Assembly: GCA_964579515.1 (NCBI GenBank)
Contig: CAZOHA010000001.1
Location: 163,484 to 227,483 of the forward strand
Origin: an uncultured Bacteroides sp.
GTDB lineage: Bacteria; Bacteroidota; Bacteroidia; Bacteroidales; GCA-2748055
DNA: 64,000 nt
Direction: 5' to 3'
This document shows positions 49,946 to 57,457 of the stretch, piece after piece (within the stretch, counting starts at the first letter, position 1; every line of letters starts with the position of its first letter). The notes under the pieces are model-generated. The model had not been told where the DNA came from, did not search any database, and saw nothing but the letters and a program-made list of their open reading frames with translations. Position numbers and translations under genes: made by a program.

Positions 49946-52900
49946 TTAAAACATCAGATTCAGGGAGAACCCATAACTTCTCAGGGAGGGGAGCTGGGTG
50001 CTCTCGTACCCGTTGACGAAGCGGCCGTTGCGGATCGAATAGGTTTCCGGGTCCACAGTGGGGTACTGGCTGAACAGCAGCAGGTTCCTTCCCACAACGG
50101 AGACACTGGCCCGGCTGATGCCGATCCGGTCGGTGACTCCCACCGGCAGCAGGTAGGTCAGTTTCAGTTCTCTCAGCTTGATGTAGGTGGCATCGAAGGT
50201 GGCTGCTTCCACGTTATCGCGGTTGAACCAGTTCCCGTAGTACTTGTAGAAGTAATCTCTCACAGGAACCCTGACGCTGTTCTCTGTCAGGTTGCCGTCT
50301 CCGTCATACATCACGCCTTCGCCGATGATACCGCCCTCCTCCACCAGGCTGTATACGGGCTCCCCGTTGGTATCATAGGTAATGTCATATATCTCCCGTC
50401 CCTCCAGGGTGGAACGGTCGAGTTTGGGATCGTCGTAATTGGTGATCGTGCCCCCGGTGTTGTTCATGGCGTGGGAACGGGAATAGAGTTTCCCGCCGAT
50501 CTGTCCGTCGAAAAGCACATTCAGGGTCCAGTTCCTGTAGGAGAAGGTGTTCTGCCATCCGATCCGCAGGTCGGGCTGGTAGGTACCCACCGAATGCTTA
50601 TCCTCGGTCAGCACCGGCAGACCGTCCTCGTGGATGATCCTTCCCTGGTCGTCCCTCTCGAAGATCAGTCCCCTGATCAGACCCAGCGGCTGTCCCTCTG
50701 CTGCGACCAGCTCCATATCGGCCGAACCTTCATCCCCGGGGTAGACATCAGCCACCAGGGGGTAGCTCTCTTTCACTCCTTCGGGAAGTGATTCCACGAT
50801 GGCCCGGTTGTGCCCCAGGTTGAGGATGCTGGTCCATACGAAATCGGAGCGGCGCACCGGTTCGCTGTAGAGCTGGAACTCGATCCCTTTGTTGCTGATC
50901 TCCCCGGCATTGACCAGACGGGTATCCTTTCCGGTGGTGAAGGCCACCGGCAGAGAGATGATCTGGTCCTTACTGAGCATGTCATAATAGGTGACATCGA
51001 ATCCGAACCTGCCCACGAAGAAGCGGGAATCGAGACCGATCTCCCAGGAGTTGGTCCGCTCGGGCCTCAGATCCGGATTGGCCGCAAAACTGCTGACCGA
51101 ATAGGCCGGGAAGCTGCCGAACAGCGCCCGGGGGTTGTAGAAACTGCGGAGAAGGTAGGGATCGGTATCATTCCCCACCTGGGCGTATGCCCCCCGGACC
51201 TTCAGAAAGGAGATGGATGAGCTGGCGGGCAGGTCCATCGCTTCCGAAAGCACCGCACTCAGCGAAACCGAGGGATAAAAGTAGGAGTTATTCTCCGGGG
51301 GCAGGGTGCTCGACCAGTCGTTCCTGGCGGTCACATCGAGATAGAGAAACCGCTGGTAGGCGAGGGTGGCCATTCCGTAGAGGCTGTTGATCCCTTTCCG
51401 TGCCCTGGGATTATCTACCAGGATATTGGACCGGTTGTTGGTCAGGGTGAACACCCCGGGTTGAAGCAGCTGGGGATTGTTGGCGATCAGCATATTGCTC
51501 TCCTGGCGCATGATGTTCCCTCCCGCTTTCAGATCGAGGGTCAGAGGGCTGCCCCCGTCGCGGGAGGTGTTGTAGGAGAGGAGGAACTCGGCGTTGGATT
51601 CAGTGAAGGTGATCTCGTCCTCTCGGTAGCTGCCGAAAGGCACCCCTTTGGTGGAGGTGGCTCTCCGGAACTGACGCTGTTCATTCTTAAGATCGAGTCC
51701 GTACCGGACCCTCAGGTTGAACTGATCGGTGAAGTGATAGGTGGCTCTGGCATCCCCGATCAGCCGCTGCTCCTGGAACGAGTTGGTGTTCTCGTTGACG
51801 ATGAACCAGGGATTGTTGCCCCACAGCTCTTCCACATAGCGCTGCTGTACATTCTCCCGGCCCTCTTTCCAGTAATCGGTGAGCTCGTCGACACCCACCT
51901 GGCGGGGGTACCACAGCCACACATACATGATCGAACTGCTTTCATCATACCCTGCGTTGGGGACATTGTCGGAGTTGTTGCCCACATACATGGTGTTGAT
52001 AGATACCTCCAGTTTCCCGTCGAACAGATTCCTGGAGATGTTGGAATAGAGGGTATTCCTTTTCAGGTTGGTATTTGGAACCACCCCGCGCCGGTACATG
52101 TTGGTGTAGGAGAGCCGGAAGTTGCCCTGGCTGGAGGACTGGTTGATGGCCACGTTGTTGGTGGTCAGGACCCCGGTCTGGAAGAAGTTCCTCACATTTC
52201 CCTCGGCCGGAGTAAACGGAACCGGTTCTCCGCCGGAGTTCCATTGTTTGATCGGCGTGCCGTCCATCCTGGGGCCCCAGTTCTCACCGAAGGCATCGTA
52301 GTAATCCCCGGTATAGGTGGCTCCGTCGTTGTAACTGAATTTGCCGTAGCCGCCGAATCCATATTCATTCTGGTAATCGGGGAGTTTCAGAGGGGACTCG
52401 AAATAGGTGGCAGTGTTCAGCTCCACTCCGAAACCGTCCGATTGGGTTCCTTTTTTGGTGGTTATCAGGATCACCCCGTTGGCTGCTCGCGAACCGTAAA
52501 GCGCCGCGGCTGCAGGTCCTTTCAGCACCGAAACACTTTCGATGTCGTGAGAGTTGACGATCTGGGCGGCGTTCCCGAAATCGATGGTGGTGGATCCGTT
52601 AAGACCGTCTCCCGGACTGTAGAGCCCGTTGGTGATGGGAATCCCGTTCACTACGAACAATGCCTGGCTGTTGCCGGTCAGGGAGGACTCCCCCCGGATG
52701 GTGATATTCGCCGAGGCGGCGGGTCCTGCAGAACCGCTGGTGATGTAAACACCCGCGATCTTTCCCGAAATATTATTGATCATGTTGGGAGTCTGCATGG
52801 AGTTGATGGCCTTCTTGTCCAGCTTCTGGACCGAATAACCCAGCGCCTTCTCCTCCCGGGCCACCCCCAGGGCGGTGATCACCACCTCCTCCAGTTCGGC

Positions 52901-53221
52901 CGATTCCACCAGCGAAACCATGATTCGCTGCTGGTTGACTATATTGACTTCCAGTGATTCATAGCCCACATAGGAGATCACGATGGTTTCATCATCTTCG
53001 TTGACATCCAGGGTAAAATTGCCCCGGGCATCGGTGATGGTTCCCCTGGTGGAGTTCTTTACCACTACGTTGGCCCCCAGAAGAGGGGTGCCGTCTTTCG
53101 ACTGTACGGTCCCGGTAATGGTCCTCTCCTGCTGGGCCCAGAGGTTGCCTGTAAAAAAGAAGAGCAAGATCAGCAGGAAAACAGGTTGTTTAGGTGTAAA
53201 AACAGGTGTAAACACTTTCAT
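49946..53221 (-). CDS. susC: SusC/RagA-family TonB-dependent outer-membrane transporter
   Basis: The start is set at MKVFTPVFTPKQPVFLLILLFFFTGNLWAQ (ATG 53221; the tracked ORF is 26 codons longer). CarboxypepD_reg-like domain (ITGTVQSKDGTPLLGANVVVKNSTRGTITDARGNFTL), plug, and a barrel ending FSLNLMF. Confidence 0.93.
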   Translation of the reverse strand: MKVFTPVFTPKQPVFLLILLFFFTGNLWAQQERTITGTVQSKDGTPLLGANVVVKNSTRGTITDARGNFTLDVNEDDETIVISYVGYESLEVNIVNQQRIMVSLVESAELEEVVITALGVAREEKALGYSVQKLDKKAINSMQTPNMINNISGKIAGVYITSGSAGPAASANITIRGESSLTGNSQALFVVNGIPITNGLYSPGDGLNGSTTIDFGNAAQIVNSHDIESVSVLKGPAAAALYGSRAANGVILITTKKGTQSDGFGVELNTATYFESPLKLPDYQNEYGFGGYGKFSYNDGATYTGDYYDAFGENWGPRMDGTPIKQWNSGGEPVPFTPAEGNVRNFFQTGVLTTNNVAINQSSSQGNFRLSYTNMYRRGVVPNTNLKRNTLYSNISRNLFDGKLEVSINTMYVGNNSDNVPNAGYDESSSIMYVWLWYPRQVGVDELTDYWKEGRENVQQRYVEELWGNNPWFIVNENTNSFQEQRLIGDARATYHFTDQFNLRVRYGLDLKNEQRQFRRATSTKGVPFGSYREDEITFTESNAEFLLSYNTSRDGGSPLTLDLKAGGNIMRQESNMLIANNPQLLQPGVFTLTNNRSNILVDNPRARKGINSLYGMATLAYQRFLYLDVTARNDWSSTLPPENNSYFYPSVSLSAVLSEAMDLPASSSISFLKVRGAYAQVGNDTDPYLLRSFYNPRALFGSFPAYSVSSFAANPDLRPERTNSWEIGLDSRFFVGRFGFDVTYYDMLSKDQIISLPVAFTTGKDTRLVNAGEISNKGIEFQLYSEPVRRSDFVWTSILNLGHNRAIVESLPEGVKESYPLVADVYPGDEGSADMELVAAEGQPLGLIRGLIFERDDQGRIIHEDGLPVLTEDKHSVGTYQPDLRIGWQNTFSYRNWTLNVLFDGQIGGKLYSRSHAMNNTGGTITNYDDPKLDRSTLEGREIYDITYDTNGEPVYSLVEEGGIIGEGVMYDGDGNLTENSVRVPVRDYFYKYYGNWFNRDNVEAATFDATYIKLRELKLTYLLPVGVTDRIGISRASVSVVGRNLLLFSQYPTVDPETYSIRNGRFVNGYESTQLPSLRSYGFSLNLMF

Positions 53222-53478
53222 GATCACTAATTTTAGGTAATTAGTTTCTGTACCAAATAAAAGATGCTGCAAAACAACATAAAAAGGCTTATATAGCAAA
53301 ATTTTACCATGGCTATATCGGGAAAGGAACGCGTAAAAAATTGAGAAACAAGGAAATGTTAATTAACTGTTAACTATAACTAAACATTGTTAGCTATACA
53401 ATAGTTCGTACAGGAATGATATTATTGAATTTCAGGGGAAAACGCCTGAAGGATACCCGGTCAGGATTCAGGATATTT

Positions 53479-54321
53479 TCAGCGCAAAAGTTGAAAAAGC
53501 CGGTGATAGGTCTCACTCTGTTTCTGCTCAAGCAGCCTTTCGCCGATTTCATAGGCCTTTTTATGGCCCCCGGTATAGTAGCGGTAAAAAAGCGATCCGA
53601 AGACCAGAAAGCCGTCCAGAAGACTGTATTGCAGGGTAGTGTAATAGGAGTAGAATCCGATGGCGGTCAGCAGTCCCACTGAATTGAGTGCCGCCGCCGG
53701 TTCTCCCCCGTAGAGCTGACCGAGCCCCGGAAGCACGATGCTCATGGTCTGGAGACGGTCGGGATCGTATTTTTCACGGAACTCCGAATAATCCGTAAAC
53801 ATCTCCTCCACCTGGTGGTAGGAGGAAGAATCGAGGATGGACGCGAAATGCTCCAGAGAGGCAGGAATCTCGTTCAGACCGAACCGGCAGATGCCCATGT
53901 AAATCTGCCGCCGGAATTCAAACCGCGGGGGCAGCTGTTCCGGCATATCGTAGAGTTGGGCAAGCGCCATCAGGTATTGTTCCTGGCGGAAATAGCAGAG
54001 GGTCTTCCGGAAAGTCATTTCGAACCGGGCGGAGTCGGTCCTGCCCGCCCTCCATGCCAGGTCGTAAAACCGGATCGCTTCATCGAAATTCTTCTGCTCG
54101 AAGTAGATGGATGCGATCCGCTCATACAGCCCGGGAAATTTATTCCCCTCGTCGAAAAGCAGCACCCTCTGGTACTCCTTCAGTGCCGCCTGCGTGTTCC
54201 CGGCCTCCAGCTGCCGGTCGGCAAAACGTTTCACCTCCTGCAGGGATTGTGCATGCGTTCCCGGAGCCGGCAAAAGGCAAAGAAGGCTAATAATACCTGC
54301 GAATAATATCCCCTGCCTCAT
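53479..54321 (-). CDS. Signal-peptide protein with a TPR-like region and a C-terminal PGxGQxY membrane domain (DUF5683-like); paralog of 54287-55147
   Basis: Signal peptide (LLCLLPAPGTHAQS). TPR-like helices (ALKEYQRVLLFDEGN..., EAIRFYDLAW). C-terminal SIVLPGLGQLYGGEPAAALNSVGLLTAIGFYSYY. Confidence 0.55.
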   Translation of the reverse strand: MRQGILFAGIISLLCLLPAPGTHAQSLQEVKRFADRQLEAGNTQAALKEYQRVLLFDEGNKFPGLYERIASIYFEQKNFDEAIRFYDLAWRAGRTDSARFEMTFRKTLCYFRQEQYLMALAQLYDMPEQLPPRFEFRRQIYMGICRFGLNEIPASLEHFASILDSSSYHQVEEMFTDYSEFREKYDPDRLQTMSIVLPGLGQLYGGEPAAALNSVGLLTAIGFYSYYTTLQYSLLDGFLVFGSLFYRYYTGGHKKAYEIGERLLEQKQSETYHRLFQLLR

Positions 54322-55147
54322 TCTGGTAACGGTTCACAGTTTGCTGGTTGTAGCTCCGGGCAGCCCTGAAGGAGCCGTAGAGGTTACTGATGTAAAAGCT
54401 GAGGGAGATTCCTCCCAGGAACCATCCGTTGAAGCTCCGGATCCCTTTTTTGCTGAAAGCCCTGTAGGAAGTGAATGCCGTGGTACCGATCATCACAAAA
54501 GATATGACGGCATCTCTCCAGCGGCCCGAATAGGCCCTTCCGCTGCCGGGCACAACGGCGGACATCATCAGAGAGAGGGCCGGACTCTTGTAATTCTGTT
54601 CCTCGAACCGGACGGTCAGTGAATAGAGCGGCTCATATTCACTTTCCAGCAGCGGCCGGTGCTGCCGGTTGTAGGCAAACACAGAATCGTAACGGCCGGT
54701 TCTCCAGTAATAACTCAACATGTAAAAAGTTTCACTGCTTTCATCCAGTCCCCCGGCCAGTGGTTGAAATTCCGGCCTGAGGGCCCTGCAGGTCAGGCAG
54801 AAATTGAGGTATTCTTTCGTGTAGAGCGGCTGCTTCAGCTGTCCGTAGCGGCTGAAAAGATCGTAGGATCGGCCCAGCTGTTCACAATTCTCTCCGTACC
54901 TGTAGTTTCTTACCAGTTCATAGAGTACCGTGGAGTGAGCGGGATAAAGGTAGTGCAGCCTTTCGTACTCCTGCGCCGCGAAATTGAACTGATTGGAAGA
55001 GTGAAGGTAACGGGCGAACTGCAGGGTATGGTCGAAGTCCATCAGATCCTCCTGGGCCCTCAGCGACACCTGGCAGCCGACCAGGGCAGCCAGCACCCCG
55101 GTCAGGAAAACCGCAGGTTTCAGTGGCCCTTTATTGAACCGGATCAT
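54287..55147 (-). CDS. Signal-peptide protein with a helical-repeat region and a C-terminal PGxGxxY membrane domain; paralog of 53479-54321
   Basis: Signal peptide (VLAALVGCQVSLRAQ). C-terminal SAVVPGSGRAYSGRWRDAVISFVMIGTTAFTSY. Overlaps both neighbouring genes (17 and 35 nt). Confidence 0.55.
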   Translation of the reverse strand: MIRFNKGPLKPAVFLTGVLAALVGCQVSLRAQEDLMDFDHTLQFARYLHSSNQFNFAAQEYERLHYLYPAHSTVLYELVRNYRYGENCEQLGRSYDLFSRYGQLKQPLYTKEYLNFCLTCRALRPEFQPLAGGLDESSETFYMLSYYWRTGRYDSVFAYNRQHRPLLESEYEPLYSLTVRFEEQNYKSPALSLMMSAVVPGSGRAYSGRWRDAVISFVMIGTTAFTSYRAFSKKGIRSFNGWFLGGISLSFYISNLYGSFRAARSYNQQTVNRYQNEAGDIIRRYY

Positions 55148-55562
55148 ACAGCCTCTGGGTTTCGGGGTCGAAGGTGTAATTCGCAGGATTCACCAGACCA
55201 TGGCATCGCTGAAGGCGGTCGAATGCAGACACCCAGCCCCTGATGATCCCTTTCTGCCTGACCGACTCCAGGGCATATTCCGAACAGGAGGGGGTGAAGA
55301 CACAGGAGGGCTTGTCCTGGGAAGAGATAAACGTTTTATAGATCAGGAAACCGGTCGAGGCGAGGATCGAGAAATCATCGTCCGACTGAAGAAGGGGTTC
55401 CGCATGGGAATGGGAATGGGAATGGAACTCCCTGGCCGGGAAGAGTGCTTCCAGGTCCGGATCGGCATGGAGGGCGGAATTTCCCGCCTGACCTGTCAGT
55501 TTCGTGAGCGATGTGGCCGTGATCAGCAGGATTATCGCAATCTTGTAAGCTTTACCCTTCAT
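55131..55562 (-). CDS. YidD-like (DUF37 / membrane-protein-insertion-efficiency-factor-like) domain protein with a signal peptide and a His-Ser repeat
   Basis: The C-terminal half LIYKTFISSQDKPSCVFTPSCSEYALESVRQKGIIRGWVSAFDRLQRCH matches the YidD pattern (P.C.F.P(S/T)CS.Y....RC.). The N-terminus has a signal peptide and HSHSHSH. Confidence 0.65.
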   Translation of the reverse strand: MKGKAYKIAIILLITATSLTKLTGQAGNSALHADPDLEALFPAREFHSHSHSHAEPLLQSDDDFSILASTGFLIYKTFISSQDKPSCVFTPSCSEYALESVRQKGIIRGWVSAFDRLQRCHGLVNPANYTFDPETQRLYDPVQ

Positions 55563-55592
55563 TGTTCCAGCTTGTTGTATGTTCTGGATGAT

Positions 55593-56330
55593 TCAGCTCT
55601 GCAGGGTAAACCTGTAAAGCTCCTCGTGGTCCAGGTCATTGACACGGATCTGGTCAAACTCCGTCACCTGATATGTCTCATTCCCCTCTTCATCATACAG
55701 GATCTGTACGATCTGCTTCGGGAACTCAAAGGCTCCGTCGGTGTGGTATTCCCGATAGAACTGGCGGCTGATGACCCGGGAATCAGGTCCCATAATGATC
55801 ACACTCTCCAGCCTGTTCTCCTTTTTGGCCACCACCACATGGCTGATCTGCTCGCTGATCTGTTTCGGGATCTTCCAGTAGGAGAGCACCATCCCGTCCC
55901 TTCTCTCCACCTTGGAGACCTTGAACCTGGACTGCTGTAAACCGAAGTCCTTCAACCCGGCATTCAGGGTCAGATGGAACACGGTGAATTCATTGATGGA
56001 CGGAATGCCCTGCCGGTCGATCAGAGTATCGTTCCTGAACTTCATAATGGAAGTATCACGAACCACCCAGTTTTCCTCCCTGGGGAAGGAGACCCGGTAG
56101 ATGAGATCCTGAATGTTCTTGTCGTAGTAGACCACCCCTTTGGTGAGGTTCATGGAACCGTCGCTTCGTTTGACCTTAACGGTAAAATCGGCGCTCATCC
56201 TGAAATAGGACTGTCCTGAAAGGGAGAGGGAACAGCAAAGCACCATCATAATCATCCCCGCACCCATTCGCATCCCCGCACCCGGTTTCTTTCCTGAAGC
56301 CGGTCTGATAAGGTACTTTGTGGTATTCAT
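55593..56330 (-). CDS. Hypothetical secreted protein, first gene of the YidD-like operon
   Basis: The hydrophobic signal segment MIMMVLCCSLSLSGQ follows a Gly/Met-rich leader, so the start may be at 56273. No motif recognised. Confidence 0.5.
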   Translation of the reverse strand: MNTTKYLIRPASGKKPGAGMRMGAGMIMMVLCCSLSLSGQSYFRMSADFTVKVKRSDGSMNLTKGVVYYDKNIQDLIYRVSFPREENWVVRDTSIMKFRNDTLIDRQGIPSINEFTVFHLTLNAGLKDFGLQQSRFKVSKVERRDGMVLSYWKIPKQISEQISHVVVAKKENRLESVIIMGPDSRVISRQFYREYHTDGAFEFPKQIVQILYDEEGNETYQVTEFDQIRVNDLDHEELYRFTLQS

Positions 56331-56351
56331 GGTCCGTATGGTTTATAAAAT

Positions 56352-56388
56352 AAAAGGAGGCCGTCCCCGTGAGAGACCGCCCCTTTTA
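56352..56388 (-). terminator. Candidate intrinsic terminator after gene 56409-56897
   Basis: The minus strand reads AAAAGGGGCGGTC-TCTCACGGG-GACGGCCTCC-TTTTATTTTAT, a GC-rich stem with a trailing T-tract. Confidence 0.55.
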
Positions 56389-56408
56389 TCACTTTGTCGT
56401 TTAAAGCG

Positions 56409-56897
56409 TTAATACGCCCAGAGAGCTGCTGTCGAGAATACCCCCACGTACAGGATCACCCATACGCCGACCCATACCAGCATTCCCCAGAGCGCTTTCT
56501 TGACTTCATCGCCATCACCGTCGGTCAGGATATAGACCAGCAGAATACCGATCACTCCCAGGATGCACCCCCAGAGGAAGGAGGGGATACCCAGCGGCGG
56601 ATCTTCGCTTCCATCCACACCCAGCGGGGCGGAGGTGGCGTCCACATTGACGATCAGGTCACTGCCCCCGGCAAGCATGTCGTCATAGGTAATGCCCTCG
56701 TTCTGTGCGACAAATTCATCCAATTCATTCAGCTCCTGCATGGCCAGGTCCAGTGCTTCTTCATCCAGGACCAGAACAGACTCGTCGATGCTCGGGATCG
56801 CCGTGCCGAGGCTTCTTGCAGAAAGAGACTGTGTCTGCGAAACCAGCAATACCAGCGCCATCATTACGCTGGTGCTCTTGAATACAATTCTTTTCAT
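56409..56897 (-). CDS. Hypothetical membrane protein (signal peptide, acidic region, two C-terminal TM helices)
   Basis: The start is set at MKRIVFKSTSVMMALVLLVSQ (ATG 56897). C-terminal TM pair FLWGCILGVIGILLVYIL and MLVWVGVWVILYVGVF. Confidence 0.5.
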   Translation of the reverse strand: MKRIVFKSTSVMMALVLLVSQTQSLSARSLGTAIPSIDESVLVLDEEALDLAMQELNELDEFVAQNEGITYDDMLAGGSDLIVNVDATSAPLGVDGSEDPPLGIPSFLWGCILGVIGILLVYILTDGDGDEVKKALWGMLVWVGVWVILYVGVFSTAALWAY

Positions 56898-56989
56898 AAT
56901 CTCAATATTCAGGTTCAGAGTTAATGGTTCATTGCGGTAAATACCGACGCTCAAGGGGCTAATATAAAAAAAAAGGGAATTATATATAT

Positions 56990-57037: not shown

Positions 57038-57457
57038 ATGAAATTTTTTCCATATGCGCTCGCTGCTTTTTTCACCCTTACCTATTGCAACCATGCATTT
57101 GCCCAGGATGAGCAGGCGGTGACCGCGAAGATCACCCCGGTTGAAGGGGAGACCGTGACCGTTCACCGGGCTTCCACCTCTTCATCCTCCTCCTGCATGA
57201 CCTCCGATTTTCCTGTTTACATGGGCACGGAAAAGGTGGAGGTGGATTTCGGCGAGCTGACCGAGCTGTATGTCAGGCATGATATTCCTGCCGGCGACCC
57301 GAACAATTACATGAGCGTGGAGCTGATCTTTGACGACGGGAGAAAGGGGATTTACGAAATGGTGAAACATATCCGGTTCACAGGTCAGACGGACGATGGC
57401 TCCTACAGCATCAGGGTTCCCGACGTCAATATGATCCAGGTGGTCAAGGGGTTTTAA
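57038..57457 (+). CDS. Hypothetical secreted protein (139 aa)
   Basis: Signal peptide (ALAAFFTLTYCNHAFAQ). No motif recognised. Confidence 0.5.
   Translation: MKFFPYALAAFFTLTYCNHAFAQDEQAVTAKITPVEGETVTVHRASTSSSSSCMTSDFPVYMGTEKVEVDFGELTELYVRHDIPAGDPNNYMSVELIFDDGRKGIYEMVKHIRFTGQTDDGSYSIRVPDVNMIQVVKGF

Follow-up and report, generated by a model that had tools for sequence, protein, structure and literature searches.

YidD is nearly universal in bacteria. Canonical members are small (~70-90 residues), carry no export signal and sit at the cytoplasmic face of the membrane. The Escherichia coli protein, which is encoded in the rnpA-yidD-yidC region, is reportedly a membrane-associated accessory of YidC-dependent insertion, and we know of only one functional study of YidD. 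Here we describe a gene cluster built around a YidD-domain protein of a different kind. The cluster lies in a 64,000-nucleotide stretch of DNA from an uncultured Bacteroides sp. (GenBank assembly GCA_964579515.1, contig CAZOHA010000001.1), which we call the window. It consists of five minus-strand genes, g0 to g4. The YidD-domain protein, g2, has a predicted export signal. It is encoded with two tetratricopeptide repeat (TPR) paralogs (g3 and g4), a protein with a predicted LolA fold (g1) and a small protein ending in a hydrophobic hairpin (g0). The cluster is a self-contained Bacteroidota gene module, scattered vertically and horizontally. Its invariant core is the translationally coupled triad g2, g3 and g4, and g0 and g1 are additions in this lineage.

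Two further described systems offer points of comparison. Bacteroidota keep pathway-specific LolA/LolB paralogs, and a carrier role has been proposed for LolA2/LolB2 in flexirubin loci (PMC11885536). The YfgM-PpiD pair of the Sec/YidC translocon joins a membrane-anchored periplasmic TPR protein to a helper on the periplasmic side of the inner membrane (PMC8082313). We found no description of the present module in the literature on YidD, YidC, DUF5683, TM2, LolA and LolA3. This agrees with an earlier reading of the window by a model (the original prediction), which could tie the genes to no known system.

By sequence, g2 (55131-55562, 143 residues) belongs to the YidD family. Residues 73-124 match PF01809 with 61.5 bits (E = 6.7e-17, cut-off 27), and the protein matches TIGR00278 with 60 bits (E = 1.4e-16, cut-off 40), so the YidD/DUF37 signature first noticed by eye survives profile comparison. 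The CxxxPSCSxY...RC[HN] core and the C-terminal DPV of canonical YidD are kept. In an alignment of 27 sequences, made up of 26 exported relatives and the canonical YidD of the same genome, Y75, S80, C87, P91, C93, S94, G105, G109, R116 and C120 are invariant. Databases label g2 an ordinary "membrane protein insertion efficiency factor YidD", and the other module proteins hypothetical or TPR. A search of g2 against PDB sequences gave a single, insignificant match (E = 0.59), and no solved YidD structure was found.

The size, topology and context that define the family are not those of g2. Compared with canonical YidD, the protein is some 60 residues longer: a signal peptide that looks cleavable comes first, and a conserved stretch of ~45 residues precedes the YidD domain. 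This extension carries the motifs GQ-x-L-x-D-x-EL-xx-LF and DY-xx-PL-[RK]-E, and because these are conserved the extension is taken to be translated. The protein is predicted to lie on the opposite side of the membrane from canonical YidD. Genes for two TPR paralogs invariably accompany it, and in some cases one of them is fused to it; neither yidC nor rnpA adjoins g2 in the window. A canonical short YidD gene is found elsewhere in the same genome, on another contig (G000:C20), so g2 is a second, specialised copy.

The original prediction had also drawn attention to an HSHSHSH tract in g2. The tract is present, encoded by a hexanucleotide repeat in the linker (55404-55426, minus strand), and alignment shows that it is no family feature. 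It is confined to the closest relatives of the window protein and missing from distant orthologs. Its length varies even among near neighbors: the window copy reads (HS)3H, and P0001 (97% identical) and P0002 (83% identical) read (HS)2H. We considered the tract as a metal-binding hallmark and rejected this because it is not conserved. As judged from these alignments, it is a local microsatellite and not a functional hallmark.

Evidence for export extends to the whole cluster. As a heuristic for signal peptides, we looked for an n-region with lysine or arginine, then a hydrophobic core, then glutamine directly after a small residue at about position 21-25. A glutamine at the predicted +1 position, the Q-rule of Bacteroidetes, marks substrates of signal peptidase I (PMC5837995, PMC10653852). 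For every one of the five proteins, a basic n-region and hydrophobic core occur in 26-28 of 26-28 orthologs, and the small residue and glutamine in 25-28 of 26-28. The N-terminal region of g2 is rich in lysine; it resembles a signal peptide in 27 of 28 orthologs and obeys the Q-rule in 25 of 28. The signal peptides proposed earlier for g1 to g4 are thus conserved in orthologs by this heuristic.

The five genes travel together. The order g0-g1-g2-g3-g4 is found in every complete locus among 23 from genomes and in several from metagenomes, three of them in the first set (more than 25 loci in all), and g1-g2-g3-g4 is kept in more distant genomes. Synteny of the homologs is strict. Among the carriers are two cultured, non-pathogenic bacteria, Maribellus maritimus (L069) and Bacteroidales bacterium 6E (L031). 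Open reading frame coordinates in the window confirm the four tightly packed genes of the original prediction, with a gap of 30 nucleotides between g1 and g2 and overlaps of 17 nucleotides between g2 and g3 (54287-55147, 286 residues) and 35 nucleotides between g3 and g4 (53479-54321, 280 residues). Similar overlaps and spacing are retained in orthologous loci. The idea of a four-gene unit did not hold: a fifth gene, g0, belongs to the cluster, and the invariant core has three genes. The longest open reading frame of g1 spans 55593-56330 (245 residues). Its orthologs begin at the ATG at 56273 (giving 226 residues), which by this comparison is likely the true start.

The limits of the core emerged from a wider sample. 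In profile searches of 401 Bacteroidota genomes from 180 genera, g1 was detected in seven genomes (six genera), each with g2-g3-g4 nearby, and g3 in 43 genomes (~11%) from 35 genera. We then fetched 12 further g3-positive loci, mostly from other classes. A YidD-like gene adjoins g3 in 11 of them, ten of which also have g4. The twelfth (L079, from genome G269) carries a YidD-TPR fusion reading frame (G269:C15:8143-9237). A second fusion, P0137, occurs at L048:1667-2872. In both, which are ~400 residues long, a YidD-like domain that has partly degenerated is continuous with a TPR/PGxG protein of the g3 type. From the linkage in these wider carriers and from the fusions, it follows that the triad g2-g3-g4 is the invariant unit. 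The module is accessory and patchy; within the genus of the window, g1 is found in six of 12 other genomes.

Several variants of the locus were seen. In G131 (L042, G131:C17) the order is g0-g1-g3-g4-g5-g2, with the YidD-like gene ~1 kb downstream and still linked. The additional gene, g5, encodes a helical protein of ~245 residues with a signal peptide, and follows or overlaps g4 directly in ~15 loci (for example L009:8202-8939 and L069:9289-10026). A search of the window's genome for g5 or a second cluster found neither. Elsewhere a divergent, type-2 cluster occurs, in the order TM2-domain protein, g1', YidD-like g2', g3' and g4' (L017:860-4222, L022, L034:7728-10642, L044:3426-3896 and L048). 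It stands in tandem with the main cluster in two metagenome-assembled genomes of Mariniphaga and near the main cluster in another metagenome-assembled genome.

The two TPR proteins are paralogs, as the original prediction had proposed. Profile-profile comparison with hhalign aligns g3 and g4 over 220 columns (98.5% probability, E = 2e-15), and BLASTP is limited to the area of the PGxG motif (E = 5e-4). An AlphaFold2 model of g3 (predicted local distance difference test, pLDDT, 90.4) shows an all-helical repeat solenoid at residues 38-182. This is followed by a helix at 189-206 that is kinked at PGSG and by two long helices at 210-234 and 239-285. In Foldseek the model gave generic TPR matches only, none at E<=1e-3. 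For g4, TPR_19 scores 27.0 bits (cut-off 25) and TPR_2 scores 26.4 (cut-off 27). No Pfam TPR model matches g3, which is assigned by its homology to g4 and its modeled solenoid.

The C-terminal motifs, KSPxxAxxxSxxxPGSGxxY in g3 and LPGLGQxYxG in g4, are each followed by helices. They recall DUF5683 (PF18935), with which g3 and g4 share KSPxKAxxxSxxxPGLGQxY and the following helix. This likeness, suspected earlier, is real at profile level (g3 by hhalign, 90% probability, E = 1.5e-6, motif region only) and below the Pfam cut-off (g3 15.9 and g4 15.4 bits, cut-off 26.7). The matches cover model positions 2-49 of 151, about the first third. Unlike DUF5683, g3 and g4 carry an N-terminal TPR domain and lack the C-terminal half of the family. 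True DUF5683 is a separate gene in 21 of 21 relatives (L050-L068 among the loci listed), single-copy in 20 of them, with two tandem matches in G418; in the window's genome it lies at G000:C8:72209-72619. The C-terminus of canonical DUF5683 is beta-strand-like and aromatic (...CSxNF), which suggests outer-membrane association, and one canonical member has been reported in Porphyromonas gingivalis outer-membrane vesicles (PMC13744359).

The window copy of g3 has a lipobox-like LVGC at residues 22-25 (N-terminus 55075-55147), where orthologs have an A/S-Q signal peptidase I site. We considered g3 as a lipoprotein and rejected this, as the LVGC is not conserved in orthologs.

Upstream, g0 (56409-56897, 162 residues) is found directly ahead of g1 in all complete type-1 loci, at 34-82% identity. 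Its reading frame is open up to a TTG at 56954, and orthologs start at the ATG at 56897. The protein begins with a signal peptide, continues as an acidic helical stretch of ~85 residues assigned to the periplasm and ends in a strongly hydrophobic two-helix hairpin with the motif PLGIPxFxWGCxLGxxGxLLVY...KKAxxGC, in which transmembrane-like windows fall at residues 107-125 and 136-154. It has 641 homologs, all unnamed, a larger family than those of the other module proteins, and no Pfam or NCBIfam match. In L070 the gene is duplicated in tandem.

Between g0 and g1 lies a hairpin resembling an intrinsic terminator (approximately 56350-56389, minus strand), with an A-tract, a GC-rich stem and a U-tract. 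The original prediction placed its operon just downstream of a terminator at 56352-56388. The hairpin is real, with a folding free energy of -26.2 kcal/mol (z = -3.97; none of 200 shuffled sequences is as stable), and a simple consensus terminator scan did not flag it. It does not bound the operon. Since g0, upstream of the hairpin, is a conserved member, the terminator sits inside the conserved cluster and separates g0 from g1. Of seven other g0-g1 spacers that were folded, six form a hairpin with a U-tract (seven of eight with the window), although their sequences are unrelated. In the L031 spacer a long hairpin has no clear U-tract after it.

The place of g0 can be taken by another hairpin protein. 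At or beside its position in L017, L022, L034, L044 and L048 are TM2-domain proteins, and the type-2 protein matches PF05154 (E = 8e-17). In overall plan g0 resembles TM2-domain proteins: behind the signal peptide come a short acidic region bearing 'xLDExAL' and a two-helix hairpin. It differs from them in lacking a Pfam TM2 match and the GxHRFYxG motif, and hhalign gives a weak match between g0 and the cluster-associated TM2 proteins (69% probability, E = 4.5e-5).

Where these proteins lie was assessed by Kyte-Doolittle (KD) hydropathy in a 19-residue window after the signal peptide. There is no transmembrane-like window in g1 or g2, which appear soluble or peripheral. The two helices of g0 are strongly hydrophobic (KD 2.45 and 2.14 in the window copy; ortholog median 2.18). 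The C-terminal helices of g4 are moderately hydrophobic (median 1.52, up to 2.02 in orthologs) and those of g3 weakly so (median 1.11). The original prediction described a motif followed by a hydrophobic segment in both proteins; the motif stands, and the segments are weakly to moderately hydrophobic. With a KKGIR loop between its last two helices, g3 has a charge pattern that would fit a hairpin whose two ends are periplasmic, with the PGxG helix at the interface. Taken together, the location evidence seems to point to the periplasmic face of the inner membrane.

On this basis we propose that the module forms a periplasm-facing membrane complex that handles hydrophobic clients, a family of explanations to which we give a probability of about 0.4. 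In such a complex, g3 and g4 would form a heterodimer whose C-terminal helices are embedded in the cytoplasmic membrane or rest on its periplasmic side, with the TPR solenoids reaching into the periplasm as a platform for docking. Mature, pyroglutamyl-capped g2 would be held there, so that its YidD domain acts on the outer and not the inner face of the cytoplasmic membrane. The complex could then assist the insertion, release or assembly of hydrophobic clients. These may be small hairpin proteins with both termini outside, such as g0 or its TM2 counterparts; we favor these as clients in this lineage, since a terminator separates their gene from the rest and the gene varies in type and copy number. 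The hairpin after g0 should lower transcription of g1-g4 relative to g0. With its LolA fold, g1 might serve as an optional shield or carrier that covers exposed hydrophobic segments or acyl chains. In function, the nearest parallel to such a complex would be YfgM-PpiD. A further reading, which we offer as tentative, is that an exported YidD on a TPR-hairpin heterodimer would constitute an unrecognized periplasmic-side machine that inserts, extracts or assembles small hairpin (g0, TM2-type) or lipid-anchored clients from the outer face of the cytoplasmic membrane, with a LolA-fold protein as optional carrier.

Several observations weigh against this proposal. Most carriers of the triad have no g0 or g1 nearby (one of the 12 further loci has both), and therefore a g0-specific role cannot be the general function. 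The third conserved cysteine of the YidD domain is lost or replaced in triad-only lineages. The weak hydrophobicity of the g3 C-terminal helices makes true membrane embedding of the g3 and g4 helices uncertain. The beta-strand-like, aromatic C-terminus of canonical DUF5683 and the detection of one member in P. gingivalis vesicles leave room for an outer-membrane site for the shared motif. Finally, the signal peptides rest on heuristic criteria and not on a trained predictor.

The nature of g1 raises a different prospect. An AlphaFold2 model from 26 sequences (pLDDT 80; predicted template modeling score 0.75) contains 13 strands plus helices and agrees with the open beta-barrel and internal helical lid that characterize the LolA superfamily. 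Against the PDB, Foldseek returned 77 matches at E<=1e-3, with probability 1.0 to LolA-superfamily structures. One of these is 3buu (LolA-superfamily NE2245; E = 7e-10, TM 0.6), and further matches include P. gingivalis LolA3 and LolB, DUF1329, 3bk5 and many LolA structures. No Pfam or NCBIfam family matches g1 at E<=1, and its profile finds no PDB sequence at E<=10. By its modeled structure, and not by sequence profile, g1 belongs to the LolA superfamily, as the earlier guess of a LolA-like fold had it. The g1 family comprises 645 clusters at 50% identity among 1.84 billion representatives. The likeness to the LolA/LolB superfamily (LolA2/LolB2, LolA3; PMC11885536, PMC13103446) includes the fold (TM ~0.6), the export signal and a size near that of the larger members (3buu, 9tp6, 3bk5). 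The differences are an identity of just 10-14%, the lack of a LolCDE or LolB partner in the locus, and the presence of g1 in a minority of module carriers.

The module could be a shuttle for lipid, pigment or lipoprotein, in which the YidD/TPR platform extracts hydrophobic non-protein cargo or an acylated protein from the inner membrane and g1 carries it to the outer membrane. The nearest neighbors of the g1 fold are lipid and lipoprotein binders, and specialized LolA/LolB pairs occur in pigment loci of Bacteroidota (PMC11885536). A hint of a lipid theme also comes from other classes, where a gene for a short-chain-type acyl-CoA dehydrogenase lies directly upstream of the triad in eight of ten loci examined, often overlapping g2 by 4-25 nucleotides (L072, L073, L074, L080-L083). 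This enzyme is cytoplasmic, however, and the linkage may be lineage-specific synteny. Moreover, g1 is absent from most triad carriers (seven genomes with g1 against 43 with g3, of 401), and the module has no conserved neighbor that encodes a LolB-like acceptor, a transporter or a biosynthetic function. We regard a shuttle as doubtful.

If the triad is taken on its own, it might instead be a general translocon-associated periplasmic chaperone, an analog of YfgM-PpiD on SecYEG/YidC that serves many exported or membrane proteins, with g0, TM2 proteins and g1 as lineage-specific passengers. The link reported between YidD and YidC-dependent insertion would suit this. The triad is the sole invariant part of the module, most carriers do without g0 and g1, and the architecture of TPR domain plus membrane anchor resembles YfgM (PMC8082313). 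The analogy is one of function only, in that a membrane-anchored periplasmic TPR protein is paired with a helper on the outer side of the inner membrane. The two systems have no sequence relationship, the anchor is C-terminal in the module and N-terminal in YfgM-PpiD, and the partner is putatively a YidD domain in the one and a parvulin-type chaperone in the other. A distribution over ~11% of sampled genomes and six of 12 genomes of the genus is unlike that of a housekeeping factor, and the recurrence of three kinds of hairpin protein upstream suggests a specific partnership. A general chaperone is unlikely. Least probable is a membrane-active effector, in which an exported 'haemolytic' YidD domain (the historical Pfam name of PF01809) damages membranes or answers stress, with the TPR pair and small membrane proteins as handlers or immunity: the patchy, accessory-like distribution even within the genus and the variable, sometimes duplicated g0-type genes would suit it, but PADLOC defense models gave one insignificant match only, so that a defense-system reading is not supported, the window shows no secretion system, type IX secretion C-terminal domain or mobile-element gene near the module and a genomic-island check no visible GC anomaly, and the overlapping, stoichiometric gene layout suits a complex more than a toxin-immunity pair.

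A SusC-type receptor gene (49946-53299) lies downstream of g4 and is not conserved beside the module in other loci. Even among genomes of the genus the flanking sequence is not conserved, and DNA identity in the flanks is only ~70%. On the other side, a divergent plus-strand reading frame (57038-57457) encodes a 139-residue protein with a signal peptide. Its N-terminus has a weak, sub-threshold match (24 bits, cut-off 52.5) to ExtJ, of a selenite/tellurite reduction operon.

The module is a real, conserved and previously undescribed part of the envelope gene repertoire, built from known families. The original prediction of an envelope module around a repurposed YidD fold stands in that the genes are conserved, syntenic and furnished with export signals; its suggestion of outer-membrane assembly gained no specific support. 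Annotation of g2 as a plain YidD by pipelines is misleading. An exported, conserved YidD paralog with obligate, sometimes fused TPR partners offers a genetically separable way into the function of the YidD fold. The module also brings three further uncharacterized families within reach as a single testable unit: proteins with the DUF5683-like motif, hairpin proteins that resemble TM2 and a divergent branch of LolA. If the proposed periplasmic-side machine is correct, the YidD fold would be a general membrane-interface catalyst that can be used on either face of the membrane, and the module would provide a first functional handle on bacterial TM2-domain proteins.

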